From: Thermodesulfobacteriota bacterium
GTDB taxonomy: Bacteria; Desulfobacterota_D; UBA1144; Nemesobacterales; UBA2774
Assembly: GCA_965216785.1 (NCBI GenBank)
Contig: OZ244197.1
Location: forward strand, 576,001-640,000
DNA: 64,000 nucleotides
Reading direction: 5' to 3'
The notes under the pieces: model-generated
The model's input: only the letters and a program-made list of their open reading frames with translations
The model's database searches: none
What the model was told of the DNA's origin: nothing
Made by a program: the position numbers and the translations under genes
Shown here: positions 17,313 to 38,890 of the stretch, piece after piece
Numbering within the stretch: position 1 is the first letter of the stretch
Layout of the letters: the number at the start of each line of letters is the position of its first letter

Positions 17313-19049
17313 TCAGCCTCTGTAGAGGTTAGTGATGGGGAAGCGTCGGTCCTTGCCGAAAGCGCGCGCGGTGATTTTTATTCCCGGAGGGCCCTGCCGC
17401 CTTTTATACTCGTTCTGATCGACCATACTTATGACTCTTTTAACAAGTTTTTCATTAAATCCCAGCGAGATGATCTCTGCAGCGCTTAGGTCGTCTTCTA
17501 CATATGCCTTGAGTATGGGGTCAAGAACGTCATAAGGAGGAAGAGAATCGGTATCCAGCTGATCCGGCCTGAGCTCCGCTGAAGGGGGCTTAGTGAGAAT
17601 GGACACAGGGATGATTTCCCTGCCTTTGTACTCATTAATGAACCAGGAGAGTCTGAAAACCATGGTTTTAGGAACATCTTTAATGACCGCGAAGCCGCCC
17701 GCCATATCACCGTAAATAGTGCAGTAACCAACGCTCATCTCGCTCTTGTTTCCGGTTGCAAGAACTAACCATCCGAATTTGTTGGAAGCCGCCATGAGAA
17801 TATTGCCACGAATCCTGGCCTGGATATTCTCTTCGGTTATATCCTCTTTTGTGCCTGTAAAGGTCTTGGAAAGCATGCTTATATATGAATTGTAAGCCTT
17901 TGCTATGGGTATCTTTACAAGCTCTATCCCAAGGTTTGCCGATAGCTTCTCGGAATCCGTTACGCTGCCCTTGGAGCTGAATTTTGAGGGCATTGAGATG
18001 CCCACGACATTTTGTTTACCCAAGGCTTCTACAGCTACTGCGGCTACCAAGGCCGAGTCTATGCCGCCGCTTAATCCGATTACGACTTTCTTGAAACCGT
18101 TTTTAGATACATAGTCCCTGGTGCCCAGTATAAGGGCTTTTAAGATTTCCTCTTCCTTACCGTAAAATTCCCTCACTTCGGATTTTACCGCAGGTTTTTT
18201 GCGGCGCGCCTGTTTTATATCTTTAATCCTGATAACCTCCACGCGCTTTTTATCGGATTTACTATGTTTTTTAATCTTCAGGTCCTGCTTGCGGGAGCGA
18301 AGAACGCTTTTGATATTTATATCCGTAACCACAAGCTCCTCTTTAAAGCCGCCCGCCCTGGCCAGTATATCCCCGCGCTCTCCCACGACAACACTGTGAC
18401 CGTCAAAGACAAGCTCGTCCTGGCCGCCTACTAGGTTGCAGAATGCAACGACAGTTGAGTAGGTTTTGGCTCTTTTTACCAGCATCTGCTCACGAGAGGC
18501 TACTTTTGAGGAGTAGTAGGGGGAGGATGAAATATTTATGATAACCTGCGCGTCACCGGCAATTGACTGCTTTCTCGTTGGGTCGCCCGGATACCATATA
18601 TCCTCGCAGATATTTACACCGAATGTAAACTTACCGAGCTTATATACGGGGACCCTTCGCCCGGACTCAAAATACCTCTCCTCATCGAACACCCCGTAGT
18701 TTGGAAGATAGTGCTTACGGTATACGTCTACAAGCTCATTATCGTGGAGTATGGCGGCTGAATTGTATAAATCGTTTTCCCGCTCCGGATAACCGATTAC
18801 CACGGTAATCCCGCCTGTAGCCTTTCTTACCTCGTCAACTGCGTGAACGCTGTCCTCGATGAATTTGGGTTTAAGAAGAAGATCCTCAGGAGGGTAGCCT
18901 GTGATTGTCAGCTCGGGGAACGCAAGGATGTCTACACCCGAATCTTTTGCAGAGCGTATGTAGCTTAATATCTTTTTCAGGTTGCCCCGGATATCTCCGA
19001 CCCTGACATTTATCTGCGCTAAAGCGATTCTTACAGTGTCCATAGCCAT
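17313..19049 (-). CDS. nadE: glutamine-dependent NAD+ synthetase
   Basis: Nitrilase domain (FPEL, LPNYGVFDE, ICEDIW) plus synthetase domain (GLSGGIDS, ENIQARIRG, TGNKSE, PSAELRPDQ). Confidence 0.97.
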   Translation of the reverse strand: MAMDTVRIALAQINVRVGDIRGNLKKILSYIRSAKDSGVDILAFPELTITGYPPEDLLLKPKFIEDSVHAVDEVRKATGGITVVIGYPERENDLYNSAAILHDNELVDVYRKHYLPNYGVFDEERYFESGRRVPVYKLGKFTFGVNICEDIWYPGDPTRKQSIAGDAQVIINISSSPYYSSKVASREQMLVKRAKTYSTVVAFCNLVGGQDELVFDGHSVVVGERGDILARAGGFKEELVVTDINIKSVLRSRKQDLKIKKHSKSDKKRVEVIRIKDIKQARRKKPAVKSEVREFYGKEEEILKALILGTRDYVSKNGFKKVVIGLSGGIDSALVAAVAVEALGKQNVVGISMPSKFSSKGSVTDSEKLSANLGIELVKIPIAKAYNSYISMLSKTFTGTKEDITEENIQARIRGNILMAASNKFGWLVLATGNKSEMSVGYCTIYGDMAGGFAVIKDVPKTMVFRLSWFINEYKGREIIPVSILTKPPSAELRPDQLDTDSLPPYDVLDPILKAYVEDDLSAAEIISLGFNEKLVKRVISMVDQNEYKRRQGPPGIKITARAFGKDRRFPITNLYRG

Positions 19050-19167: not shown

Positions 19168-19809
19168 TTACGAAAGACCTATGGCTATGTGCACTACGTT
19201 TGCCAGAAAATGAAAGATGATACTGGCCCAGAGGGTGCCTGTGGCTAAGTATAGATAGCCCATAACCAAGGACGGGAAAAAAGTGAGAACGGCCTGAGAG
19301 CATACCGAAATATTATGACTTCCACCGATACAAAGAGTGATAAAATGCCCGATAGCAAAGAGAAGGCTCACGATAATAACTCCTTTCAAATTGTTCCCGA
19401 GCTTATTCTGAAGATAGCCCCTGAAAAAGACCTCTTCGGGCAGCGCTACCAAAAGGAGCTGTACGAGAATAAAGGTGTAGGAAAGCATGCGAAACGAAAG
19501 AGATCTATTTGTATAATAGCCTATGAGCGCCATGGCACCTGTGTATACGAGGAGCAGGATGACGGATACTATGAGCCCGATTACAATACCTCTTAAGTCC
19601 CACCTGAGTGTTGAAGAGCCACTTCCAGTGAAAATGGGTACGGAGAGCATTAAAAAGGCTGCTATTGAGGTAACATATGGCCAGGGGATAAAAAACTTCA
19701 TAGCGAGAATAGCTATGATGATTAGCACGTATATGGATAACGGGACAAGGTATCTGGACTCGCGTAAACTTGTTATCATAAGGAAATCTCGGAACACATT
19801 TTCAGGCAA
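19168..19809 (-). CDS. CPBP (Rce1/Abi) glutamic intramembrane protease, myxosortase/JDVT-sortase-like
   Basis: ALPEEVFFRGYLQ, LFAIGH, TFFPSLVMG, IFHFLAN; multiple TM helices; alternative start ATG 19779. Confidence 0.88.
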   Translation of the reverse strand: MPENVFRDFLMITSLRESRYLVPLSIYVLIIIAILAMKFFIPWPYVTSIAAFLMLSVPIFTGSGSSTLRWDLRGIVIGLIVSVILLLVYTGAMALIGYYTNRSLSFRMLSYTFILVQLLLVALPEEVFFRGYLQNKLGNNLKGVIIVSLLFAIGHFITLCIGGSHNISVCSQAVLTFFPSLVMGYLYLATGTLWASIIFHFLANVVHIAIGLS

Positions 19810-19839: not shown

Positions 19840-21072
19840 TCAATAAAGCACATAGAATTCAAACTTATTTATGAACAAAACACCCCAGATATTTACTAAG
19901 ATGCTGAGAACAATTAATAATTTGTGATACCACTTGAGCTTTTCGGGAATCCCCTTAAATGTAAGCAATAGAAGAAACGGATAGAAATCGAGAGCATAGC
20001 GGTAACCGAACTGGGTCCATCCCGTACCGCTCTTTGTAAAAATAAGTAGAGCCGGGGGAATGATGGCGAGCCAGCAAGCGAGAGCGAGTTTGTTTCTGAT
20101 TCCCGCGGCGAAAGCAAAGATGAACGCAGGGGTTGTGATAAGTACACTGAGCCCCTCTTTTGACGGAACGATGTAGGGCCATTTTTCAATAAGAGCCGGC
20201 GGCTGCAGGAGGAATGTATATAGGTGATGATGCACATAGGAGAGGCTGAGCAGCCCCTGATCGAACCACGGGGATACCCTGGCTTTAGCTTCTGATATTG
20301 TGTGCATGGAATACGCTACGTCAAAGGGCGAGCCGAAGCGCAGATAGTTGTAGAGAAAGTTTAGACTGATAAATACCCCGACCCCAAGGGCCAAAAGTAA
20401 TAGAGGCTTTAATTTAATCCGCTTTAATATAGAGCTGCCGGAGGACAAGGGAAGCCATAGATCTGAGAGCATTACTATAAAAAACGGGAGTGTTAAGATA
20501 GTTAGAACCCTGGACCAGTATGAAGCCCCTAAAAGAAGACCGATTAGAAACACTCTACGCTTGCCGAATGTCTCAAAGATAGCGAGAAATAGAAAAAAGA
20601 GCGAGACTATATGGGCAAAATACCAGACTGAGCCGATTGTCGACGTGTACCAGTATATGGTGCCAAACGCAAAGAGCAGAGTCATCCACACCTGCTTTTC
20701 AAAACTCTCCGTAAGCCTTCTCATTAGCAAGAAGACAATTGAAACGTTGACGGCGCCAAGAACGATAGATGCGAATACCTGGCTGAAAGAAAGTCCCCAT
20801 ACGGCTACGAAAGGCACCAAAAGCAGTGCCGGCATAGGAGGATATATGGTATAGGAAAGCCCGTCTTTTATAATGAGCTCCTCAAAATAAAACGGGGTGT
20901 CCTGAAGATAAAGTCTGCCGTCAAGCAGAGCGTGCGCAAGGTATATGAAATAGTTAAAGGGGTTGGGCGGAGAAGGCTGCGTTACAAAGTATAAAACAAA
21001 TGAAATCAGGAAAAATAGTACGGCTGCGATGAGCGTGGAGTTTCTTTTATAGCCTGGATTCGATATATTCAT
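19840..21072 (-). CDS. polytopic membrane protein, probable GT-C-fold glycosyltransferase; paralog of 24210-25424
   Basis: About 10 TM segments; YPPMPALLL after the first loop; C-terminal GWTQFGYRYALDFYPFL. ATG 21072 follows GAAGGT. Confidence 0.6.
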   Translation of the reverse strand: MNISNPGYKRNSTLIAAVLFFLISFVLYFVTQPSPPNPFNYFIYLAHALLDGRLYLQDTPFYFEELIIKDGLSYTIYPPMPALLLVPFVAVWGLSFSQVFASIVLGAVNVSIVFLLMRRLTESFEKQVWMTLLFAFGTIYWYTSTIGSVWYFAHIVSLFFLFLAIFETFGKRRVFLIGLLLGASYWSRVLTILTLPFFIVMLSDLWLPLSSGSSILKRIKLKPLLLLALGVGVFISLNFLYNYLRFGSPFDVAYSMHTISEAKARVSPWFDQGLLSLSYVHHHLYTFLLQPPALIEKWPYIVPSKEGLSVLITTPAFIFAFAAGIRNKLALACWLAIIPPALLIFTKSGTGWTQFGYRYALDFYPFLLLLTFKGIPEKLKWYHKLLIVLSILVNIWGVLFINKFEFYVLY

Positions 21073-21165
21073 TGTAACCTTCTTATAAGTAACATTATAT
21101 TCAAGCATTTGTCGGACGGTCAAGAAACTATGGAGACGCGACTCGATCGATAGTATATATCAGCA

Positions 21166-22260
21166 ATGAACCGCAAAGACACACTTAAAGAATTACTGCC
21201 CGTAATAATCATAACGATACTAGGTACGTATTTTTTTTCTTACGTCTCGTACATTTTGATACAGAACGCGTATCCCGAGAGCCTGTTCGAAATATGGACA
21301 AGATGGGATACCGGGCATTATTTGAAGATCGCGGAAAAGGGATACTTGGCATCAGCTGATTATCAGATCGCTTTTTTTCCCCTCTATCCCTACCTAATTA
21401 AAGCCCTTACCCTGGTGTTTCAAAACTATATGTTGTCAGCATTAGTTATATCAAATCTGACTTACGCAGTGGCCGCATATTTTCTGTATGAGCTTGTAAA
21501 ACTTGACTATGATAAAAAAGACGCCTTAAGGACTGTAATATATTTATCCGTTTTCCCGACGGCGTACTTCCTGCACGCGGCTTATACCGAAAGCCTGTTT
21601 CTGGCGCTTTCTATCGGGAGTTTTTACTACGCAAGAAAAAAAAGCTGGGCTCTGGCCGGTATTCTGGGAATGTTTGCGGCGGCGACGCGCATTACCGGCA
21701 TCCTTCTCCTTCCGGTGCTCATCGTGGAGTACCTATCGCAGAAAGAATATAAATTAAGCGGGATAAAAACAGACTTTGTATGGATATGGATAATCGGGCT
21801 TGGCCTGATCTCTTACCTTACATTCAATTACATGGTTACGGGCGATCCTTTCTACTTCTTTGAAGTACAGCAGGCGAGCTGGTCAAGGAAGATCGCGCTT
21901 CCGTATGAGGGATTTCTGAACGCGCTTAGCGGAAGGCCTCCCGGCCGCGAGTCTACGGGGGCGCTGGCGGGGGACTGGGCCGAGATTATATTCGGCGTTT
22001 TGGGATTGGCAGGCGTAATATATAGTTTTTTCAAGCTTCGTATTTCATATAGCCTATATGTTCTGCTTACCTGGTTACTCGTAACCTCTAGCGTGATCTG
22101 GCTCAGTATACCGAGGTTTACGCTTACGATGTTTCCGCTAATAATTCTCCTTGCTCTATTTGGCAGGCGCAGGGGAGCAAATTTTATAATTTTATTTCTT
22201 TCACTTATCTGCTATGCGCTATATTTGTCACAATTTATAAGGTTCAAATGGGCTTTTTAG
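21166..22260 (+). CDS. PIG-V/Gpi18-like (GT76, Mannosyl_trans2) mannosyltransferase, copy 1
   Basis: RWDTGHYLKIAEKGY, AFFPLYP, AYTESLFLAL, ATRITG. Confidence 0.85.
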   Translation: MNRKDTLKELLPVIIITILGTYFFSYVSYILIQNAYPESLFEIWTRWDTGHYLKIAEKGYLASADYQIAFFPLYPYLIKALTLVFQNYMLSALVISNLTYAVAAYFLYELVKLDYDKKDALRTVIYLSVFPTAYFLHAAYTESLFLALSIGSFYYARKKSWALAGILGMFAAATRITGILLLPVLIVEYLSQKEYKLSGIKTDFVWIWIIGLGLISYLTFNYMVTGDPFYFFEVQQASWSRKIALPYEGFLNALSGRPPGRESTGALAGDWAEIIFGVLGLAGVIYSFFKLRISYSLYVLLTWLLVTSSVIWLSIPRFTLTMFPLIILLALFGRRRGANFIILFLSLICYALYLSQFIRFKWAF

Positions 22261-22262
22261 CT

Positions 22263-23390
22263 ATGTCTAGAAAAAAATTTGAAGATATATTAGAAATTCT
22301 TCCAATAATACTGACGGTAATAATCGGCACATTCGTTTTCGGCATTGTGTCTCACCTGGTGATAGAGAATAGATTTCCGGAGAGCTTGCTTGATTTATGG
22401 AATACCTGGGACGTTCAGCACTATATAAAAATAGCCAAGTTCGGATACCCAGCATTATTCGAAGACGGAAGGAACCTGCAGATCGTATTTTTCCCTCTTT
22501 ACCCCCTACTTATAAAGTTATTTTCATTTGTTTTTCAGAATTACATAGTTTCTGCCCTTATTGTATCAAACCTGTCTTATGCTGCAGCGGCATATTACCT
22601 GTATAAGCTCGTAAAAATAGATTTTAAAAAGGATGGCGCTTATAGGGCCGTTATCTATTTCTCTGTATTCCCTACTGCTTATTTTCTGCATGCCGCGTAT
22701 ACGGAGAGCCTGTTTCTGGCTCTTACAATTTCGAGCTTTTATTACGCCAGAAACGGCAGGTGGGCCATTTCCGGTACGCTCGGTATGCTGGCGGCGGCTA
22801 CAAGAATTACGGGGATACTGCTCATTCCGGTGCTAGTAGTAGAATATTTATCACAGAAAGGTTATAAGATAAGAAATATAAGACCGGATATAGTCTGGAT
22901 CGGTATCATAGGGTTTGGATTACTCGCGTATTTAATTCTGAACTATGTAGTTGCCGGAGATCCGTTCTACTTCTTGGAAATACAAAGAGAGCATTGGGCT
23001 AAGAAACTTGATTTCCCATTTAAAGGGTTTATAAGCGCCTGGAATATTATGACCGGAGACTTTGCGCTTAACGTTGACAGCCCCTCGACTAGACTGCTTG
23101 GCGGTCCGGTTGAGATTATATTCTCGTTATTGGGGCTATCGCTAACTATTTATAGTTTTTTCAGGATTAGACTTTCTTACAGTTTATACGCGTTGGCTAC
23201 ATGGATAATCATCACATCTACAGGGTTCTGGCTGAGTATTCCCCGATATACGCTTGCCATGTTCCCGATCTTCATAGCTATGGCTCTTTTGGGAAGGAAA
23301 AAGTACGTCAATTATCTCATAATATTCATATCGATATTGTTCTATGCGCTCTTTTTAATGAATTTTGTGAGGTTCAGGTGGGCGTTTTGA
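22263..23390 (+). CDS. PIG-V/Gpi18-like mannosyltransferase, copy 2
   Basis: TWDVQHYIKIAKFGY, VFFPLYP, AYTESLFLAL; ATG 22263 lies directly after the copy 1 stop. Confidence 0.85.
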   Translation: MSRKKFEDILEILPIILTVIIGTFVFGIVSHLVIENRFPESLLDLWNTWDVQHYIKIAKFGYPALFEDGRNLQIVFFPLYPLLIKLFSFVFQNYIVSALIVSNLSYAAAAYYLYKLVKIDFKKDGAYRAVIYFSVFPTAYFLHAAYTESLFLALTISSFYYARNGRWAISGTLGMLAAATRITGILLIPVLVVEYLSQKGYKIRNIRPDIVWIGIIGFGLLAYLILNYVVAGDPFYFLEIQREHWAKKLDFPFKGFISAWNIMTGDFALNVDSPSTRLLGGPVEIIFSLLGLSLTIYSFFRIRLSYSLYALATWIIITSTGFWLSIPRYTLAMFPIFIAMALLGRKKYVNYLIIFISILFYALFLMNFVRFRWAF

Positions 23391-23479
23391 AAACTTCGTA
23401 GATGAAATGATCCCAAAAGTATTATTCCCCTCTAAAAGATAAAGTGTTAGTATACTTTGCTCACGGAGAAGGTAATTAG

Positions 23480-24181
23480 ATGGAAATTTCAATCGTAATT
23501 CCAACTTATAACGAATCAGAAAACCTACCGATCCTCATTGAGAAAATTACGGCGGCTCTGGATAGTAGCAATATTGAGAGCAGGATTATAGTAGTTGATG
23601 ACGATTCGCCTGACGGGACCTGGAAAACGGCACTTGAGTTAAAGAATACATATGAAAACCTTGAAGTTCTCAGGCGTCAGGACAAGAGGGGTCTTTCTTC
23701 CGCGGTGCTGGACGGGTTTGCTATGTCAGATAGCCCTATCTTGGGAGTGATGGACGCGGACTTGAGCCATCCGCCCGAGAAGATACCTGAGCTAGTGGAG
23801 CCTATAATCAGGGGAGACGCCGATATTACTATAGGCAGCAGATACATAGATGAGGGCGGAATTGAGAAATGGCCTTTGACCCGGAGGATTTATTCTAAGG
23901 TTGCCACTCTGCTCGTACTCGGGTTGACGAATGTAAAAGACCCGATGTCAGGTTTCTTCTTCCTTCACAGAAACGTTATAGAGAACAAGCAATTAAACCC
24001 GCTCGGGTTTAAAATAGGGCTTGAAGTACTGGTGCGGGGCGAGCATGAAAACGTAATTGAAGTACCGATATTGTTTGGGGACAGAATGCATGGCGAGAGT
24101 AAGCTCGGCGGGGGCGTCGTGCTTGATTATCTGCTGCATCTTTCTAATCTTTACATCTATAAGTATTTTATGAGAAAATAG
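23480..24181 (+). CDS. polyprenol-phosphate mannose synthase (DPM1/Ppm1-like GT2)
   Basis: IPTYNE, VDDDSPDGT, RGLSSAV, MDADLSHPP, GSRY, DPMSGFF, RMHGESKL. Confidence 0.9.
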   Translation: MEISIVIPTYNESENLPILIEKITAALDSSNIESRIIVVDDDSPDGTWKTALELKNTYENLEVLRRQDKRGLSSAVLDGFAMSDSPILGVMDADLSHPPEKIPELVEPIIRGDADITIGSRYIDEGGIEKWPLTRRIYSKVATLLVLGLTNVKDPMSGFFFLHRNVIENKQLNPLGFKIGLEVLVRGEHENVIEVPILFGDRMHGESKLGGGVVLDYLLHLSNLYIYKYFMRK

Positions 24182-24209
24182 AAGTTTATATGCTCATAGG
24201 GCTTAAAAT

Positions 24210-25424
24210 ATGAAGGAACTTTTCAAGACAGGATCAAATAACTCAACTTTATTTATAGCAATCGTATTAGCGGTCATATCGTTCGCTATATACTTTTTCA
24301 CAACTAACGGGGCACCCACACAATTTAATAACTTCGTTCTGCTGGCAGACGCTATATTGAACGGACAGCTGCACCTTGATAGAAATCTGAGCTGGATAGA
24401 GCTTGCTCATTATGATGGAATATACTTTATAGTTCCGCCCCCTATACCGACGATTTTGATATTGCCGGTAGTGGCTGTAACAGGTCTTGAAACAAATCAG
24501 ACTTTGCTTTCTTACGTCTTTGGAGCGATAAACGTATCACTGGCCTTTTTAACTGCCAGGTGTGTAAGTAGGAGCGTAAAAGTCCAGATCTGGACGGCAG
24601 TGATGTTCGGTTTCGGAACAATACACTGGTGGGTCGCCGCAAACGGCGGAGTCTGGATGTTTTCGCACACAATATCCGTCACATTTTTATTCATCGGAAT
24701 AATTCTGAGCTTTAAAAAGGCACACCCATTGCTGCCGGGCCTAAGCCTCGGCGCGGCATACTGGACCAGGCTCCCGACTGTACTTAGTTTCCCGTTTTTT
24801 ATGGCTATGTATGTGGATGAGTGGTATAAGAAGGACAGCACACAAAGCATAATAAGAAGGATCAATTTAAAGCCTCTTATTTATATGGGCTCGGGAGCAG
24901 GCATATTCGTAATACTGAACATGATTTATAATTACGTAAGGTTTGATACGCCTTTTGACGTGTCGTACTATCTTATTCCCGGAATCCTGGATGAATACTG
25001 GTATCAGAAAGGTATATTCGATATAAGCTACATACCGAGGCATCTGAAAATTATATTCGGCAGACTGCCAAATTTCTCAAGCGAATTCCCATATGTTACG
25101 GCATCTTGGAACGGGCTCGCAATCTGGATAACAACCCCCGCTTTTATATACGCATTCTTTGCGGGAATTAGAAACAGGATTGCTATTGGGTGCTGGCTTT
25201 CGATTGTGCTTATTGCATTTATAGATTTTTGTCATGGCACGTGGGGCTTTACACAGTTCGGTTACAGGTTCGCTATGGACTTCTATCCGTTCTTATTCCT
25301 CCTAACCGTCAAAGGGATTGGAGATAAGATCCGCTGGCACCATATAACTCTTATATTAATAGGGATACTGGTAAATCTTTGGGGGGTTCTCTGGATATAT
25401 AAATTCGGCTGGACCGGTTATTGA
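24210..25424 (+). CDS. polytopic membrane protein, probable GT-C-fold glycosyltransferase; paralog of 19840-21072
   Basis: VPPPIPTILI, YNYVRFDTPFDV, GFTQFGYRFAMDFYPFL. Confidence 0.6.
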   Translation: MKELFKTGSNNSTLFIAIVLAVISFAIYFFTTNGAPTQFNNFVLLADAILNGQLHLDRNLSWIELAHYDGIYFIVPPPIPTILILPVVAVTGLETNQTLLSYVFGAINVSLAFLTARCVSRSVKVQIWTAVMFGFGTIHWWVAANGGVWMFSHTISVTFLFIGIILSFKKAHPLLPGLSLGAAYWTRLPTVLSFPFFMAMYVDEWYKKDSTQSIIRRINLKPLIYMGSGAGIFVILNMIYNYVRFDTPFDVSYYLIPGILDEYWYQKGIFDISYIPRHLKIIFGRLPNFSSEFPYVTASWNGLAIWITTPAFIYAFFAGIRNRIAIGCWLSIVLIAFIDFCHGTWGFTQFGYRFAMDFYPFLFLLTVKGIGDKIRWHHITLILIGILVNLWGVLWIYKFGWTGY

Positions 25425-25442
25425 TAGGCAGAAGAGATAAGA

Positions 25443-26060
25443 CTATTTCTTAAAAACGAGAAACTTATATCCCAAAAAATTCCAAATAACTACTATAAAT
25501 ACAGACGCAAGAGCCGAAATATTGGCCCATAGCACCGGAGACACGCCGCCAATGGGGCCGACGAAATTAACCAGGAATGAAGCCACAGCAACGTTAATAA
25601 AAAACCCGACGCCGGCAACTGTGAGAAACTTAAAAAACTGCTTCCCCATACCTTTAGTCTCAATACTCTCAAAGGTCCAGAACTTGTTCCACAAATAACT
25701 GTTAGTTACGGCTGAGAGAAAGGAGACAGCCTTAAAAATCGAAAATAGGTAACCTTTTTCGACACCGGACAAGAAGATAAGAAGGTTAAGTATCCCGAAG
25801 TCAATTGAAACATTGGACATGCCAATGGGAATGAATTTGCCGAATTGAAAGAGTGAGTGCCGATAGGAGCCGAGACGCGAAAAAATATATACCCATAAAG
25901 AGACCAAGGGGGGAATAACTATCAGAGCAAATGGCCAGTACTCAAGATACGAATGATAACCCTGGGGAATCTCGGCTTTTAGAGCATTCAGCATCGCCAC
26001 GGTAAAAACCGATATTATGAGTCCGATAATAAGCGAGGATATTAGATCTGTTCTTTTCAT
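25443..26060 (-). CDS. GtrA-family lipid-linked sugar flippase with two extra N-terminal helices
   Basis: [44 protein letters not shown]. Confidence 0.88.
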
Positions 26061-26148
26061 AATCCGAGATGTATAAATTCAAACCGGCCGGAGTATATAG
26101 CTATATAATCTTAAGGAATGATAGCATGTACTTTTATTTCAAACGACA

Positions 26149-27462
26149 TTATCTCCAGGATTCAAGCCACATATATTGTTCGTGTTTATGATTTTCCATA
26201 TTTACTGCCGCAGTAATCGGATAGAAATAGATGAACACCGCCACAGCCGCAAGCAGGTACAGGACCACAAGTATTTTCCCGAACTTAGAATTCATGTTCC
26301 AAATGCGGTCGAGAAAATAGGCGCTTATTATGAGAATGAAGATAAAAGCGGGTATATAATGGTATAAAAAAGTTATCTTTCTCGGAGAAACCGCCCACGG
26401 AAGCCAAAGCGCAAGCACGCTTACGACGGCGAATATGAGAGGCGGATACTCTTTTCTTATGGCCTGAACCGCGCCCAGAACAAAGAACACACACCCCGTC
26501 CACCATATAAATGGGTTACCGAGCATATAAATATGCGCTCTGATACCTTCCCCTAAATCGTCAAAGTGAAGATATACGGGCTCGAGCATAAGAGGCCACT
26601 GCCACCACCTGGATTCATATGGGTGATGAGTTTCCACCCCGCCGTGAAAACCGTACATGGCATCCTGAAGACTAAGGAAGTCGACAAATGAATTACCAAA
26701 ATAGAAAAAAGGAATGTAAGTGGCAATGTAGACAAGTAAAGGCAGCACTCCGAACGCAATAGCCATTCTCGGAATTATATTTAGAACCGACTTTATATAG
26801 GAGCGGTCTTTTGAATCAGACAGACTGACTTCATAGTAATAGATTAGAAAAAAAGAGACCCCCGCAAGGAATATCCATATGTATACACCGCTCCATTTAA
26901 TGGACATCGAGGCCCCCGCAAACAACCCTGCCAGCATAAGAAACAAGATCTTTCTAGTTCTCGCGTACTTTACTACAAATAGAGACGCCAGGAGCAAAAA
27001 ATCGACCATAAAAATATCGACCATAGTAATCCGGCTGAGCACAAATATAAATGAATCGAGACTGTAGAGTACCGCAGCAATTAACCCTACTCCTTTACTT
27101 AGAAATAGGTTCTTCGCTAAAAGGTATATTAGAAGCGCGCCCAAGCCGCCGAAGAATGCCTGAAAAAACCGCCAGCCAAATGTATTATTGCCGAATATCT
27201 TGATGCCGATTGCGCTCAGCTCCTTACCCAGAGGAGGGTGTGACCATTCATATGCGAGATCCTCGGGAGCGTGACCGGTATTCTGCCAGGCGTGCTTGTT
27301 TCCCTTAGCCATCTCTTGGGCAGTGAAAGCATAATATACTTCGTCGAAATAGTAGCTTTGGGGTATTTCCAAACGGTATAATTTAGTGCCTAAGCTGAAA
27401 ATAAGCACTAAAAACAAGAGTATCTCGAATCTGAATTTATAGAGTAGCGAGTTTGAAGACAT
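26149..27462 (-). CDS. protein O-mannosyltransferase (PMT, GT39)
   Basis: YFDEVYY (DE motif), HPPLGK, FGWRF, KWSG, HPYESRWWQWP, FLYHYIPA. Confidence 0.9.
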   Translation of the reverse strand: MSSNSLLYKFRFEILLFLVLIFSLGTKLYRLEIPQSYYFDEVYYAFTAQEMAKGNKHAWQNTGHAPEDLAYEWSHPPLGKELSAIGIKIFGNNTFGWRFFQAFFGGLGALLIYLLAKNLFLSKGVGLIAAVLYSLDSFIFVLSRITMVDIFMVDFLLLASLFVVKYARTRKILFLMLAGLFAGASMSIKWSGVYIWIFLAGVSFFLIYYYEVSLSDSKDRSYIKSVLNIIPRMAIAFGVLPLLVYIATYIPFFYFGNSFVDFLSLQDAMYGFHGGVETHHPYESRWWQWPLMLEPVYLHFDDLGEGIRAHIYMLGNPFIWWTGCVFFVLGAVQAIRKEYPPLIFAVVSVLALWLPWAVSPRKITFLYHYIPAFIFILIISAYFLDRIWNMNSKFGKILVVLYLLAAVAVFIYFYPITAAVNMENHKHEQYMWLESWR

Positions 27463-27464
27463 TT

Positions 27465-28829
27465 CTAATTCCCTGAACCGATATGTGCAATGTGCTCTTT
27501 AGTAGATTCCAGATGCTCTTTTGAAGCTCCTTTATACCTGAGCGTATTTTTTATAAAATCATAGAACAAATACAGGAAAACAAAAAGGTATAGAAAAAAC
27601 AGCCCGGGTATAAATAATCCGGAATATTCTTCAGGAATTCCCTTGTATAGTGTGACTAATTGTATATAGGAATAGATCATATTCAAAACGTAAACAAGGG
27701 AGACGATAGCATATAAATACCATAATATCCAATGGCGATAAGTGAGCAGAGTGAAAAACACGATTGCGGGGAGGAGGTGTCTTTCGTGGGCGCGCGTGAT
27801 AAATAAAAAGAGAGAGAATATAATAAGAGTAATCGCCTGGTATATAAAATAAGAGAAATCCTTGCCATACTCTCCGCGGCTTACGTAGACTACACGGATA
27901 AGGAGAGCGCCGATCACAGTGTATATGGAGAAAAATATCACCGTACCCCAGCTCTTGTATGATAAACCCAGAAATAATAGACCGTCGTTCCTCCACATAG
28001 CAAAAGATCCCCAGAAATTAAAAGCGTTGAGAGAGGAATATGGGTACTGATCATAGGCTGCAAAGAATCTGGCTCTGATAAGTTCTAGAGGTCCGGTGAA
28101 TATATAGGTGAAAGTATCGAGCTTATCCCATATGAAGGGTAGCGATAAAATTGTAGAAGTTATTAGTATCGCCAGCACTACTTTAAGTGTCGGTATAAAT
28201 GTTTTAATTGTTGGCTTTCTGTATTGCCTGAATAAGGGCTCAACTGCTATAAGTCCTATTAACGGGAACACCACAATGCTCGGGGGCTTAATCATAAACG
28301 CCAGGGCCGCGAATATGCCTGAGAGTACATATCGCCTGCCTAAAGCTGTTATTATGGAAAGAAGTATGGGCAGGGCGTGAAAAGAATCTACTTGCCCCCA
28401 AAATGTTGAGTTTGAAAGAGAAGCGGGATTGAAAAGATAAACGACAGAGGCAATCATAGCGTTTCTGACTGTAGTAATGCGCCTCAGTGCGTAGAATATT
28501 GAAACGGATATGCCGAGATCAGCAAGATTGGCCGGTAATTTAAACAGTATATCTGTTGAAAACGCGGGGAAAGCGGAACTTATCCTGTCGAGCGCCCACA
28601 GTACGTAGAGATAACCTGGCATATAGTCACACCAGAATCTGTCGTAAAACTTGCTGAAGCCGACCCACGAAATCTGACTACCCCATATTTTCCAGGCCAT
28701 AAAGTCATTTTCGTAGGTAAGGAATAGAGAAAATATAATTCTCAGTAAAAACCCCGCCGCGAGTATCAGAACAAAAAGAACATAGGGATCTTTGAGGTTT
28801 GTGTACCTACCTACTTTAGCGGAGCTCAT
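27465..28829 (-). CDS. GT-C glycosyltransferase (ALG6/GT87/DUF2029-like)
   Basis: DYMPGYLYVLW, KLPANLADL, NSTFWGQVDS, SLNAFNFW, HERHLLPA; about 11 TM segments. Confidence 0.75.
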   Translation of the reverse strand: MSSAKVGRYTNLKDPYVLFVLILAAGFLLRIIFSLFLTYENDFMAWKIWGSQISWVGFSKFYDRFWCDYMPGYLYVLWALDRISSAFPAFSTDILFKLPANLADLGISVSIFYALRRITTVRNAMIASVVYLFNPASLSNSTFWGQVDSFHALPILLSIITALGRRYVLSGIFAALAFMIKPPSIVVFPLIGLIAVEPLFRQYRKPTIKTFIPTLKVVLAILITSTILSLPFIWDKLDTFTYIFTGPLELIRARFFAAYDQYPYSSLNAFNFWGSFAMWRNDGLLFLGLSYKSWGTVIFFSIYTVIGALLIRVVYVSRGEYGKDFSYFIYQAITLIIFSLFLFITRAHERHLLPAIVFFTLLTYRHWILWYLYAIVSLVYVLNMIYSYIQLVTLYKGIPEEYSGLFIPGLFFLYLFVFLYLFYDFIKNTLRYKGASKEHLESTKEHIAHIGSGN

Positions 28830-29523
28830 CTCTAAGTTTCCAGGATTCTTTGAACATTCTTAGTATTACTTTAATATTAGCACCTGATTGCGTGCCGAAT
28901 TTCCGGGGAAAGTGGCGTATGGGAAATTCCTTTAGCTTATACCCGTGGTTTTTTAATTTGATCAGAAACTCGGCTGTAAAAAGCGCCCCACCTGAGATAA
29001 TGGGTCTAACACAGTGATAAGCCTTAGTGGGAATGACCTTAAAAGCGCAGTCCATATCCTTAACTTTTAGTCCGAACATAAAATATATGTACATCGCGTA
29101 AAGCCAAGCGTTAAGTGATCGCACGGGTGAGTCCGCTCTATCTTCTCTATAGCCGATAAGCACATCGTTTTCATTAACCGAGGGCAGCATACGATCAAGA
29201 TCGCTTATGTCGAATTGCCCGTCGCTGTCCATGAAGAAAATGTAATCGAGAGAAGCTTTTTCAAAACCACTCAGGAGCGCACCTCCATAGCCTCTATTTA
29301 CTTCGTGGTTAACCAATATGACAGATGGATTTGTGGATGCGAGCTGATCCACAATGGCCCCGGTATTATCGCTTGAGCCGTCGTTTACGACTATTACCTC
29401 GTAAGTACCGACATTATTCTCAAGATACGAAACACACTGGTTTACAGTGGTTTCAATATTTTCTTCTTCATTATGCGCAGGAAGAACTGCTGAAAGAGAT
29501 ATATCTGCTCTCATTTTATCCAT
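28816..29523 (-). CDS. GT2 polyprenol-phosphate glycosyltransferase (DPM/DPG synthase-like)
   Basis: LPAHNEE, VNDGSSD, NRGYGGAL, MDSDGQFD, DMDCAFK. Confidence 0.88.
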   Translation of the reverse strand: MDKMRADISLSAVLPAHNEEENIETTVNQCVSYLENNVGTYEVIVVNDGSSDNTGAIVDQLASTNPSVILVNHEVNRGYGGALLSGFEKASLDYIFFMDSDGQFDISDLDRMLPSVNENDVLIGYREDRADSPVRSLNAWLYAMYIYFMFGLKVKDMDCAFKVIPTKAYHCVRPIISGGALFTAEFLIKLKNHGYKLKEFPIRHFPRKFGTQSGANIKVILRMFKESWKLRDELR

Positions 29524-35604: not shown

Positions 35605-37560
35605 TTATTTCTTTCTTCTTCTCATAGCTCTGATACCGAATACGAACGCTACAGGTACCAGCGGAATCAGTACGTTGGCGAATGCCGTGCCAAGCTGTAC
35701 AGGGTTTCCGGCGATTGCGCAGCTACCACTTCCGCCACCACGGTTAGGCGTGGTCGTCGGAGGAGCCGTCGTCGGTCCGAGTGTCGGAGCCGTCGTCGGA
35801 GGAGCCGTCGTCGGAGGTCCTACGAAGTTGTCGCTAAGAATAAGCGCTTCGTCGATTCCGAGTCTTGCGAAACAAACTGGAAGCTCGCCGCAACTCGTGA
35901 ACTTCTCTACGTCGTTCCAGATACCGACTACCGCGTTGATGAAAGCTGCCTGCGGTGTATATGAAGGCAGATATTCATCATAGAAGTTGATGTGAACTGC
36001 ATCAGCTCCAGCAGTACCTGTCTGGGCATCGAACTGTCCTGCGAATACGTTCGGAACGATTACGTCTAGGAACGCATTCTCGGATCCGTCAAGGATACCG
36101 TCACACTCGAGTGTTTCAATAATAGTGTCGAGTACTGTGAAGTTATCTACAAAAGCTCCAGTGTTGTCGCCACCATCTGTACAACCCGCCTCAGAAGTCT
36201 GTCCGGTGATGTACTGAACAGCATAAGTACCAGGTCCGTCTATGGAAAGTGACTCGCCAGTGAAGAACGCAGAGCGGCCAGCTATAAAGTCGAAGTTACT
36301 ACCAGCACCTGATACGTTGTACTGCTGTGCATCAGTACCCAAACCTGTACATGTATTACCATTAGCAGGGTCATCGCCGAGCGCTGCCGCGTTATAACAC
36401 CTGCAGTCCTCGAAGTTAGCAACACCAGTGGTGTCATCAATTATACAGACCATCGCATAGTTAGCACAGGTCGTAAAACTATCCGGAAGCAGGAACGATA
36501 GGTCATAGGTAAGAGTTTTACTCTCATCAGTCGTGAAAATGTTACTGGTTACAACAGTCACGTTCGTCTCAAAAGCAGCACCCGAATCAATAAGGTTCGG
36601 TCGTGCGAGCTCAGTAAACGGCCCACCCTGGTATGGTAGAGACGGATTGAAAGTTGATGAGACTGCAAAACCCATGAACAAGTTAGAGTTGGGGTTATCA
36701 GCGTCAGGGCCAGAAGCAGCAGGTATCGGTACAGTTCCCACAGCTATATTAGCCTCGGTGATTCCACTCGATTGACCCTGGCCAACTGACCATGGTCCGA
36801 TGGTCGGTCCATTCTGGAAACTTCCATTCTGGACAAGGTTAACTGTTGTCGTTGTTGTTATATCAAAGCAAACACCCTCTCTGTGATAGGTAGCAAAACC
36901 ATACATGTAATCTGATTCTGCAACACTTTTAATGAAAGTGTTACCAGCTAGATAGTCATGCTCTTGCGCTTGACCAGGAGTCGGGCAGTTGTCAACAGCC
37001 GTTACAGTTACAAAACCCTCTTTACCCTGAAGGTTAGCATCGGCTTCGTCAACACCTATGTTTGAAATGATATCTCCAAAGTTATATACGTGAGTATCGA
37101 ACTCAGTGTAGAAATCACAGAAGTTTCTGATTTCAACACAGTTTTCGTCAAATATATGCACGTGAACCCAGGTACCAGTTTCGTTTATAGCGTTGGTTAC
37201 CTGAAGGTACGTGTTTCTGCCATCTTTCTGTGTCCACCAAGAAACAATCTGTGAACCAGTTTCGTTAGTCGGTGTAGGACTGAAGAAAGAGGTAAAATCT
37301 ACATGCTGCCAGTCCATACCACCGTGTAGCGGCCCTCCGATAAGGCTATCGACGGTACCGATGAGCGCACCCGAGAAGTCCGGGAACGGCAAAGCCGGAG
37401 CAGCCTCTACATTTACTTCTAGCCAACCTGTAGTGTCTGGTACAGCCGGGCAGAACAGGCCGTCAGTGCCAACTTGGGCCTGAGCCTGGTTCTGAAAACC
37501 AAACCCTAGCAAGACAAGCATTATTACAGCTACCAAAGAAAATCTTAACTTGCTTATCAT
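35605..37560 (-). CDS. acidic secreted surface protein (S-layer candidate) with Pro/Thr linker and Cys-containing C-terminal sorting signal
   Basis: Signal peptide ending AQA; D/E/T/G/N-rich; ends PPTTAPPTTAPTLGPTTAPPTTTPNRGGGSGSC, hydrophobic helix, RAMRRRKK; strong RBS AAGGAGG. Confidence 0.85.
   Translation of the reverse strand: MISKLRFSLVAVIMLVLLGFGFQNQAQAQVGTDGLFCPAVPDTTGWLEVNVEAAPALPFPDFSGALIGTVDSLIGGPLHGGMDWQHVDFTSFFSPTPTNETGSQIVSWWTQKDGRNTYLQVTNAINETGTWVHVHIFDENCVEIRNFCDFYTEFDTHVYNFGDIISNIGVDEADANLQGKEGFVTVTAVDNCPTPGQAQEHDYLAGNTFIKSVAESDYMYGFATYHREGVCFDITTTTTVNLVQNGSFQNGPTIGPWSVGQGQSSGITEANIAVGTVPIPAASGPDADNPNSNLFMGFAVSSTFNPSLPYQGGPFTELARPNLIDSGAAFETNVTVVTSNIFTTDESKTLTYDLSFLLPDSFTTCANYAMVCIIDDTTGVANFEDCRCYNAAALGDDPANGNTCTGLGTDAQQYNVSGAGSNFDFIAGRSAFFTGESLSIDGPGTYAVQYITGQTSEAGCTDGGDNTGAFVDNFTVLDTIIETLECDGILDGSENAFLDVIVPNVFAGQFDAQTGTAGADAVHINFYDEYLPSYTPQAAFINAVVGIWNDVEKFTSCGELPVCFARLGIDEALILSDNFVGPPTTAPPTTAPTLGPTTAPPTTTPNRGGGSGSCAIAGNPVQLGTAFANVLIPLVPVAFVFGIRAMRRRKK
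35744..35822 (-). repeat. imperfect 15-nt tandem repeat (CCTCCGACGACGGCT) encoding PPTTA units
   Basis: Forward strand gtcgtcggaggagcc units with one PTLG interruption. Confidence 0.85.
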
Positions 37561-37631
37561 TTATTTATCCTCCTTTTTGAATTTTGTTACGCAATTGTAA
37601 GTCATTGTTGTTTACCTTTGTCATTTTTATT

Positions 37632-38753
37632 TTAAAGATCCTCTGTCGGCTCTAACGTAGGAGGAAAATCTTCCTCGTCATCCGAAGCAAGCCAAGAATC
37701 CATGGATCCCGTACCGTTTCCGTTGTTAAGGCCTAAGAAACCAACGAAAAATAGATCTTCATCTGGGGAATCCTCAAAGAAGACCGGCAGGTACAACCAA
37801 CCAGCGTCATTGGATTCGCTGAGCGTGCTGTCGTTGCATATACGGTTACCCAAGTCAGCCTGCTTACTGTTAGGAATAGAGTTATCTATACCTCTGTTGA
37901 AGTTGCCAATCGAGCAGTCAAAGAATGTCGGGCTGCAAGACGTACCGTCTTCAAATTCATCGAATATATGAACCTGCGGGTTGCTAACTTCAAACGGGTC
38001 ACCAGAATTGGAGCCGAATGTAATTCCAAAGAATGGTGATGCGGTAACAGTATCGAAGTCAACCTCTTCATAGACTATACCAACAACATCTGAGAGGTTA
38101 TTGCCGTCTACGTTATTGAAGTTCAATATGAAATCTGTCGTTTCATCCCCAAAGAAGTCTTCTCCCGCTGCATTAGTTCTGTATTCATAACCAGAAGCGT
38201 CTAATATGCGGAATAAGCCAATCATCGCGAAGTCGTCACCCGAGATAAGCGAAATCGAAACGAAACCGTAACTGTTGGACAGATCCGGGTCCGGAGCCGA
38301 TTCACACTCGGAATTTGGTAATCCGTCGGCTGTACAGTTGCTTACCAAGTTCTCAATATCGTAAACGTGTGTATCGCCCTTAGTGTAAACATCGTCCCAG
38401 TTTACCTCTTCGCATGCACCAAAAGGCTGGTCAACAGTAGTTGCACCAACATTAAAAATCTGTACGTGAACAACTATTGTGCTCGTCGATGTATTGGTCA
38501 GCTGAAATAGGGTGTCCCTATCTCTTGTATCCCAATAGTAGATGAGTCTGTTCACTCCAGTATCTGTCTGGTCAACCAGCGGCAATACGTTACCGCCGGG
38601 GCCGCCAGCGATTGACTGCGTCGGTAGAACCAGCATTGGTAAAACCAAAAGAAAAGCAAGTACTAACAAGTACTTTATTTTGGACATAATATCCTGTAGC
38701 ATTGAACCTTTCCTCCTTGTTATAGTATTGTTGATTATGTTTCCTTTGTTCAT
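37632..38753 (-). CDS. acidic secreted protein, paralog of 35605-37560 without the anchor
   Basis: Signal peptide; shared motifs (QLTN, VHVQIF, DTHVYD, GFV, TSC, GID). Two in-frame AAGGAGG-preceded starts at 38753 and 38702. Confidence 0.85.
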   Translation of the reverse strand: MNKGNIINNTITRRKGSMLQDIMSKIKYLLVLAFLLVLPMLVLPTQSIAGGPGGNVLPLVDQTDTGVNRLIYYWDTRDRDTLFQLTNTSTSTIVVHVQIFNVGATTVDQPFGACEEVNWDDVYTKGDTHVYDIENLVSNCTADGLPNSECESAPDPDLSNSYGFVSISLISGDDFAMIGLFRILDASGYEYRTNAAGEDFFGDETTDFILNFNNVDGNNLSDVVGIVYEEVDFDTVTASPFFGITFGSNSGDPFEVSNPQVHIFDEFEDGTSCSPTFFDCSIGNFNRGIDNSIPNSKQADLGNRICNDSTLSESNDAGWLYLPVFFEDSPDEDLFFVGFLGLNNGNGTGSMDSWLASDDEEDFPPTLEPTEDL

Positions 38754-38890
38754 ATACATCCTCCTTTTATTTTTCAAATTTCAGTAAATATCCAGGATTT
38801 GCAAGCGTTAGGCAAGCTCCATCTCCTTTAATTTAACATAAGAACATACGCAAAAACGCAAACTTATAAACAAATTCACAACTGCACAGA

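Follow-up and report, generated by a model that had tools for sequence, protein, structure and literature searches.

The window, by which we mean the whole stretch of 64,000 nucleotides analysed here, contains the gene of a single-copy, myxosortase-related protease that is likely a housekeeping sorting enzyme of the Dadabacteria, predicted to cut the cysteine-containing C-terminal tails of 11 proteins. Cysteine-type C-terminal sorting, for which the only experimental work that we found concerns MrtX of M. xanthus, would thereby be extended to a further phylum. The Dadabacteria tail and protease would make up an unnamed subfamily of their own, both parts of which current NCBIfam models miss, and the patchy loss of the system within the phylum would provide natural knock-outs of a kind that the myxobacterial system does not offer. 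A literature search for Dadabacteria in connection with CTERM or sortase, which covered few subscription papers and stopped short of the species supplement of the Haft preprint, found no paper. The protease gene and its motifs are as follows:

19168-19779, minus strand: Mrt-like CPBP (Rce1-type) glutamic intramembrane protease, 203 residues from the likely ATG
19408-19446, minus strand: ALPEEVFFRGYLQ, with the catalytic EExxxR (E115, E116), which forms part of the first of two signature segments of myxosortases
19345-19359, minus strand: FxxxH motif, FAIGH (F141, H145)
19267-19281, minus strand: FFPSL, the second myxosortase signature segment
19198-19212, minus strand: HxxxN motif, HFLAN (H190, N194)

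The longest open reading frame at this position (19168-19809, minus strand, 213 residues) starts with a TTG at 19809. The ATG at 19779 appears the more likely start, since the 15 closest homologues have 202-203 residues and align to 95% of the TTG form. The protein scored 70.3 bits against PF02517 (cut-off 22.4), as expected of a CPBP/Rce1-like protein, and carries all of EExxxR, FxxxH and HxxxN; every motif read in the initial annotation (EExxFR, FxxxH, HxxxN, ALPEEVFFRGYLQ and FFPSL) was located on this minus-strand frame. According to PMC11980579, the HxxxN pair forms the oxyanion hole in MrtX and MmRce1. Residues E115, E116, H145, H190 and N194, together with F167 and P169, were unchanged across 93 aligned sequences, and the catalytic residues were conserved in at least 119 of 120 homologues. 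Among named relatives the nearest, at 83% identity, is from a Candidatus Dadabacteria record, and the genome is taken as that of a Dadabacterium. The predicted structure (pLDDT 88.9) gave MmRce1 (PDB 4CAD) as its best structural match, with a probability of 1.00, a TM of 0.61, 17% identity and a weak E-value, and SpdC as its second (TM 0.67); these top matches had E-values of 0.005-0.05 and none reached 0.001. A sequence search of the PDB with the protease returned no match. In Dadabacteria orthologues a short loop with two cysteines, present in 117 of 120 homologues, follows the FxxxH helix (residues ~149-161) and may form a disulfide.

Against NCBIfam, the six best matches of the protease were all to Mrt models, and every one lay below its cut-off. 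The scores in bits, with cut-offs in brackets, were 76.8 (250) for MrtP, 72.9 (100) for Mrt_core NF040914, 59.7 (195) for MrtC, 55.8 (130) for MrtS NF040589, 43.9 (325) for MrtZ and 42.5 (180) for MrtX; MrtJ NF033192, outside these six, gave 37.6 (75). The core regions of all seven Dadabacteria orthologues scanned were also under the Mrt_core cut-off, at 59-71 bits. The protease is outside every named Mrt or CTERM model, and its suggested place in one of the named families, myxosortase or JDVT, was not borne out. What did hold is the reading that two of the motifs mark sorting-associated CPBP proteins. In the SIMBAL analysis of MrtX, two 13-residue segments gave the strongest specificity signals (Haft, bioRxiv 10.1101/2023.06.07.544157), and it is to these that the two motifs correspond. 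Both segments are present in the query and in all 11 proteins that passed the Mrt_core cut-off among the 43 core regions scanned, and in 0 of 20 paralogue cores, the paralogues having been sampled as all PF02517 matches in five genomes with a related protease (38 matches, 30 taken as loci).

A tree of 66 cores and 117 columns, with its in-group gathered by similarity to the query, its bootstrap unsettled and its paralogue branches long, placed the query in a 46-row group (support 98/94) with all 11 core-passing proteins. It left 19 paralogues outside, including the second CPBP protein of the query's own genome, so that the protease groups with the myxosortases and not, as the initial annotation had allowed that it might, with generic paralogues. 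The 11 core-passing proteins themselves sat within a 15-row subgroup (83/92) that holds no Dadabacteria. The comparison set was one without MrtS, MrtA or adjacent-pair MrtJ references or any broad MrtS/MrtJ/MrtA sample, and it omitted the third CPBP protein described below, locus L187 and four paralogue loci with no recognisable motif or match. In this tree the protease is nearer to the Mrt proteins than to the other CPBP paralogues, as expected of a myxosortase in the broad sense. The second CPBP protein (genome G000, C1:282579-283214; L001:7580-8215, plus strand) has WE in place of EE; its best model is the archaeal MrtA (87.9 of 200), and it was found in 16 of 120 genomes. A divergent third one (C1:2858487-2859371; L002:7488-8372, plus strand) has no EExxxR and lies 3.4 kb from a tail protein.

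The substrates predicted for the protease are represented in the window by one protein:

35605-37560, minus strand: 651-residue exported protein that belongs to no known family and carries a Thr/Pro linker and a Cys tail; it is among the 11 likely clients
35605-35742, minus strand: its sorting tail, comprising a Gly/Ser run, Cys614 (codon 35719-35721), a spacer, a hydrophobic helix with Pro and an RRRKK end

The Cys-containing tail that had been noted at 35605-35745 is thus real and belongs to the minus-strand 651-residue protein. A genome-wide screen turned up 11 tail proteins of 348-1882 residues. Each of their tails opens with a run of Gly, Ser and Asn, followed by C[SA][LIV], a spacer, a Leu-rich helix containing Pro and a stretch of basic residues, and in all of them the Cys, the Pro and one Arg are unchanged. 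A strict rule, which was drawn up from the tails themselves, picked out 10 of 1288 C-termini of open reading frames of at least 300 residues and 0 of 38,809 internal windows, and a profile made from the 11 tails found no twelfth in the genome (next match E 0.15). The tail Cys was unchanged across 60 aligned tails, rows that were selected for having it, with one Cys-less variant (L119) left out. The N-termini of the clients resemble signal peptides by eye, in four cases only from a later start codon. Their bodies vary and carry domains of surface type (NHL propellers, subtilase, thaumatin, DUF11, choice-of-anchor Q and G8), and for 4 of the 11 there are tail-less homologues in the genome. The 651-residue client had no Pfam, NCBIfam or Atlas family match, and a co-fold of its tail with the protease scored 0.01 (mark 0.32; controls not folded).

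Searched with TIGR03901 (MYXO-CTERM, cut-off 20), one of the 11 tails scored 20.3, one 15.9 and nine gave no match, and across the 60 aligned tails there were weak MYXO-CTERM matches in 16 at E 0.1. With TIGR04564 (Synerg-CTERM) the best of the 11 reached 13.6 against a cut-off of 22.5. A search of the genome with NF033191 (JDVT-CTERM) was blank, as were its controls. The 651-residue protein is accompanied by a tail-less neighbour of 381 residues (window 35605-38777) to which it is weakly homologous and which likewise has no Pfam, NCBIfam or Atlas match; a similar gene pair lies at C1:1054907-1057644, and genome G079 carries at least 11 copies of the 651-residue type. It is possible that this type is a major surface protein. 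Further on in the window, a long S41 peptidase (39690-42641) scores above the TIGR03900 (MXAN_5808 family) cut-off, and in G019 an S41 peptidase gene of the TIGR03900 type lies directly upstream of the protease.

The nearest relatives known are MrtX, MrtC and MrtP, which act with MYXO-CTERM (models compared: NF040914, NF040593, NF040594 and NF040674, with the tail model TIGR03901). Like them, the query has an Rce1-type core with EExxxR, FxxxH and HxxxN, both signature segments and a single gene copy, and, like them, it is associated with many unlinked clients, a tripartite Cys tail and type II secretion, and falls in the same tree group. Unlike them, it is under all the cut-offs, outside the 83/92 subgroup and from another phylum; the identity of its core to the 11 core-passing proteins is 34-43%. 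The Dadabacteria tail differs from MYXO-CTERM in having a single Cys, no GCGC and a Pro in the helix, whereas the MYXO-CTERM helix is without Pro according to the paper on myxosortases (10.1101/2023.06.07.544157). It resembles Synerg-CTERM, the partner of MrtS, in the Ser/Gly run closing on one Cys, in the association with type II secretion and in the Pro inside a Leu-rich helix (11 of 11 Dadabacteria tails here), but has a spacer of ~8-15 residues after the Cys that Synerg-CTERM lacks, and comes from another phylum. With MrtJ and JDVT-CTERM it shares a single-Cys tail of comparable length and, broadly, the group to which its CPBP protease belongs, but not the Asp-Pro nine residues past the Cys; in place of an adjacent pair there are 11 clients, the nearest 16.4 kb off. 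The likeness to MmRce1 and eukaryotic Rce1 lies in the catalytic residues and the fold match given above (TM 0.61, weak E-value), while the substrate differs: Rce1 acts on short prenylated CAAX ends, and in the predicted substrate of the query a membrane helix comes after the Cys.

Over 120 genomes of the phylum, the protease was detected in 85 and tails in 91 by each of two profiles. After inspection, 84 genomes had both, 28 neither, one the protease only and seven tails only, which makes 112 of 120 concordant. A single protease match was seen in 84 of the 85 positive genomes, the one extra being a 32-residue piece at a contig end, and in genus g26 the orthologue was the sole PF02517 match in 35 of 36 genomes; the same sole-CPBP argument was used by Haft for MrtA (10.1101/2023.06.07.544157). 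A single copy that co-occurs with a tripartite, invariant-Cys tail is what characterises an Mrt protein in the broad sense, and both were found. Occurrence of the protease in genomes lacking such tails, which by the initial annotation would speak against its reading, was seen among the Dadabacteria only in G070, an assembly of 240 contigs in which no tail was found. Six of the tails-only genomes are in 110-350 contigs and the seventh, G047 (7 contigs, 90% complete), is also without GspD; in these genomes the protease may be truly absent. The number of tails in a tail-bearing genome ranges from 1 to more than 30. Three genomes that had been candidates for lacking tails (G052, G058 and G063) proved on inspection to have real ones, one of them in G063, and a weak match in G118 proved not to be a tail. 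G018 and G030 were scored as tail-negative, their uninspected first-profile matches (E 0.005 and 0.008) having gone with the broader profile.

Most double absences (25 of 28) are accounted for by the whole of families f6 and f9, which have small genomes (0.8-1.6 Mb). Since the PF01694 rhomboid (87 of 120 genomes) and GspD (89 of 120) show the same family-level pattern of absence, f6 and f9 provide weak evidence, and only about three independent absences bear weight in the co-occurrence argument. The genomes that discriminate best are G020 (99% complete), which has kept GspD and in which neither protease nor tails were found, and G019 and G090, each a single contig and 99% complete, where tails occur with one CPBP protein and without a PF01694 rhomboid. 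GspC, D, E, F, G and K of the query genome score above their cut-offs in a type II secretion operon, and GspD is present in 86 of the 91 tail-positive genomes.

Beyond the phylum, a related protease adjoins a Cys-tail gene in two Nitrospirota and four Planctomycetota loci among 80 inspected, with homologues of the type II secretion genes of the query genome alongside:

L038:9986-12840 and L039; L070, L076, L078 and L081: loci in Nitrospirota and Planctomycetota where genes for the protease, a Cys-tail protein and type II secretion homologues lie together

In G125 (Nitrospirota) and G128, the two such genomes searched, the adjoining tail was the only one found, so that these pairs apparently involve one client per genome. 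With the Dadabacteria profile, no genuine tail was recovered from three distant genomes that have a related protease (G126, G127 and G129); their tails may be lineage-specific, or the protease may have a different job there.

A different job in the Dadabacteria themselves, for instance as an SpdC-like non-cleaving partner or a quality-control protease, with the tails serving as uncut membrane anchors, seems unlikely. Such a role would fit a protein that misses every named sorting-protease cut-off and has SpdC as its second structural match, and the co-absence of unrelated genes from the streamlined families leaves room for it. It accounts poorly for the retention of the catalytic residues in nearly every homologue, for the unchanged tail Cys (with the selection of those rows in mind) and for the two-gene pairs of protease and Cys tail in two other phyla, all of which favour a sorting protease.

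The gene neighbourhood bears on whether that sorting protease serves one client or many:

17313-19049, minus strand: nadE, glutamine-dependent NAD synthase, 118 bp downstream of the protease and its most constant neighbour
19840-21123, minus strand: GT-C-like membrane protein, encoded immediately upstream of the protease, which elsewhere is retained without it
19840-29523: glycosylation cluster, given as context (two PIG-V-like, two GT2, one GtrA, one Pmt, one GT87-like and two GT-C-like genes)

The initial annotation had placed the protease directly downstream of, and co-oriented with, a GT-C-like gene. The position stands, since that gene ends 60 bp before the protease ATG on the same strand. 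Its identity as a glycosyltransferase was not secured by any cut-off: 19840-21123 has no Pfam match and a weak glycosyltransferase match of 30.1 bits (cut-off 200), and a GT-C-like protein is plausible. It is paralogous to a second GT-C-like membrane protein at 24210-25424 (46% identical, no Pfam match in either). That the protease heads the cluster is true of the coordinate order; in transcription the GT-C-like gene precedes it and nadE follows, and the cluster itself is interrupted by a plus-strand block at 21166-25424.

It had further been proposed that the protease is the dedicated sortase of the 651-residue protein, and from this one could construct a single surface-glycoprotein module in which the protease works with the glycosylation cluster. 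Among the 29 genomes that encode a homologue of the 651-residue protein, which here lies at the far end of the cluster, 19 have this gene and the protease ~20 kb or less apart on one contig, a GT-C-like gene directly precedes the protease in 16 of 28 close loci, and the client's Thr/Pro linker ahead of the tail might be matched with the Pmt-type gene of the cluster. In the same 28 loci, however, nadE follows the protease in 26, which points to gene order being conserved generally, and the proximity of the 651-residue protein is equally compatible with such conservation and with a module. The 651-residue client is 16.4 kb from the protease and the other ten tail proteins are 97 kb to 2.3 Mb away; the protease is in 85 of 120 genomes against 29 for the 651-residue protein and 35 for the GT-C-like gene; and in genus g26 no glycosylation gene was nearby in any of the seven loci inspected. 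Since the protease persists where the GT-C-like gene, the 651-residue client and the rhomboid are missing, its link to the glycosylation cluster is positional. We regard the dedicated module as very unlikely, and neither the word dedicated nor the functional tie to glycosylation can be kept.

That the tails are cut by another protease, namely the rhomboid (as in GlyGly-CTERM sorting), the second CPBP protein or exosortase H, is highly improbable. In its favour, the tails do begin with a glycine run, the rhomboid has a similar family pattern and MrtA is the best model of the second CPBP protein. Yet at E 1e-5 the rhomboid gave no match to rhombosortases, and no PF01694 rhomboid was found in the tail-bearing G019, G090 and G078. 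G019 and G090 (single contigs, 99%) have one CPBP protein, the orthologue, which contradicts a role for the second; that second protein has WE for EE, was found in 16 of 120 genomes and lies outside the Mrt group. XrtH (93.6 of 86) has 56 IPTL-type motif matches of its own. These 56 C-terminal matches represent a second, larger sorting system in the genome, in which exosortase H and the membrane protein associated with it, both above cut-off, lie at C1:983548-984745 (L165); XrtH presumably pairs with the IPTL-type tails.

For a myxosortase-related protease with 11 clients, we infer by analogy to MrtX cleavage, its site, lipidation and surface display of the clients, and propose the following order of events. 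The client would be exported by Sec and its signal peptide removed, after which the tail helix would anchor it in the inner membrane with the basic end inside. A lipid would then be attached to the tail cysteine, and the protease would cleave distal to that cysteine by means of E115/E116, H145, H190 and N194. Finally, the type II secretion system would carry the lipid-anchored client to the surface. PMC11980579, a paper of 2025, describes Cys-dependent cleavage by MrtX, demonstrated in E. coli, and gives lipidation as a proposal. Its authors describe the acyl-transferase of myxosortase sorting as unidentified, with Lgt the leading candidate.

We tentatively take an enzyme of the Lgt family as the best candidate for the lipidation step here too, with one paralogue as the specific lead:

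Genome G000, C1:1249474-1250244 (L214:1453-2223), minus strand: Lgt2, upstream of trkA, 105.3 bits

The genome has three Lgt genes, with scores of 125.6/118.9 for Lgt1, 105.3 for Lgt2 and 108.3 for Lgt3; Lgt1 is beside lnt, and Lgt3 is among genes that by eye resemble metal transporters. It is the patchy loss of protease and tails that points to Lgt2. At least two Lgt matches were present in 84 of the 85 protease-positive genomes and one in all six genomes of f6, all 19 of f9 and G020. In a quick tree of 42 Lgt rows, Lgt2 (with Lgt3) was apart from Lgt1 (SH-aLRT 99), and the Lgt retained in f6, G020 and G063 was Lgt1. Lgt2 normally lies between recJ and trkA. Across the trkA loci sampled (18 from 20 genomes searched and 4 further loci), it was upstream in 10 and missing in 11, one locus having no upstream DNA. 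In G020 and all six f6 genomes recJ abuts trkA, in f9 another gene occupies the gap, and the family relatives of G020 (G018, G019, G021 and G022) all retain Lgt2. A second Lgt match in G020 was considered as a decayed paralogue and dropped, being below cut-off, with nothing significant from tblastn with six Lgt queries.

Several observations count against this lead. G063 has an intact protease and one detected tail, and Lgt2 is missing there, the next gene abutting trkA; the Nitrospirota genome G125 has a protease/tail pair and yet one Lgt. MrtX needs no special partner to cleave in E. coli (PMC11980579), and lspA-lgt operons are housekeeping in M. xanthus (PMC8689077). The column that by motif likeness matches His103 of E. 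coli Lgt, which was not itself aligned, is Tyr in 12 of 12 Lgt1 proteins, and the same column, again by motif likeness only, is Leu, Phe, Ala, Val or Trp in 9 of 9 Lgt2 proteins, so Lgt2 may or may not be enzymatically active. Perhaps the Dadabacteria possess all three parts of a Cys-tail pathway, with a duplicated, specialised Lgt2 lipidating the tail Cys before the protease cuts; if this is true, Lgt2 would be the missing lipidating enzyme of myxosortase-type sorting. That Lgt2 is an orthologue of the myxobacterial Lgt paralogues was unsupported, as in the Lgt tree it is nearer to Dadabacteria Lgt1. Passages of PMC13184517 and 10.64898/2026.02.05.703148 gave no further information about the lipidating enzyme. 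In two f6 loci (L218 and L235) a gene other than lnt directly follows the retained lgt, and lnt may have been lost or moved. At L066:6242-10678, a run on one strand comprises ileS, lspA, lgt and a myxosortase-like gene that passes Mrt_core; the lgt directly upstream of the myxosortase is below the TIGR00544 cut-off, and a second lgt 4 kb upstream passes it.
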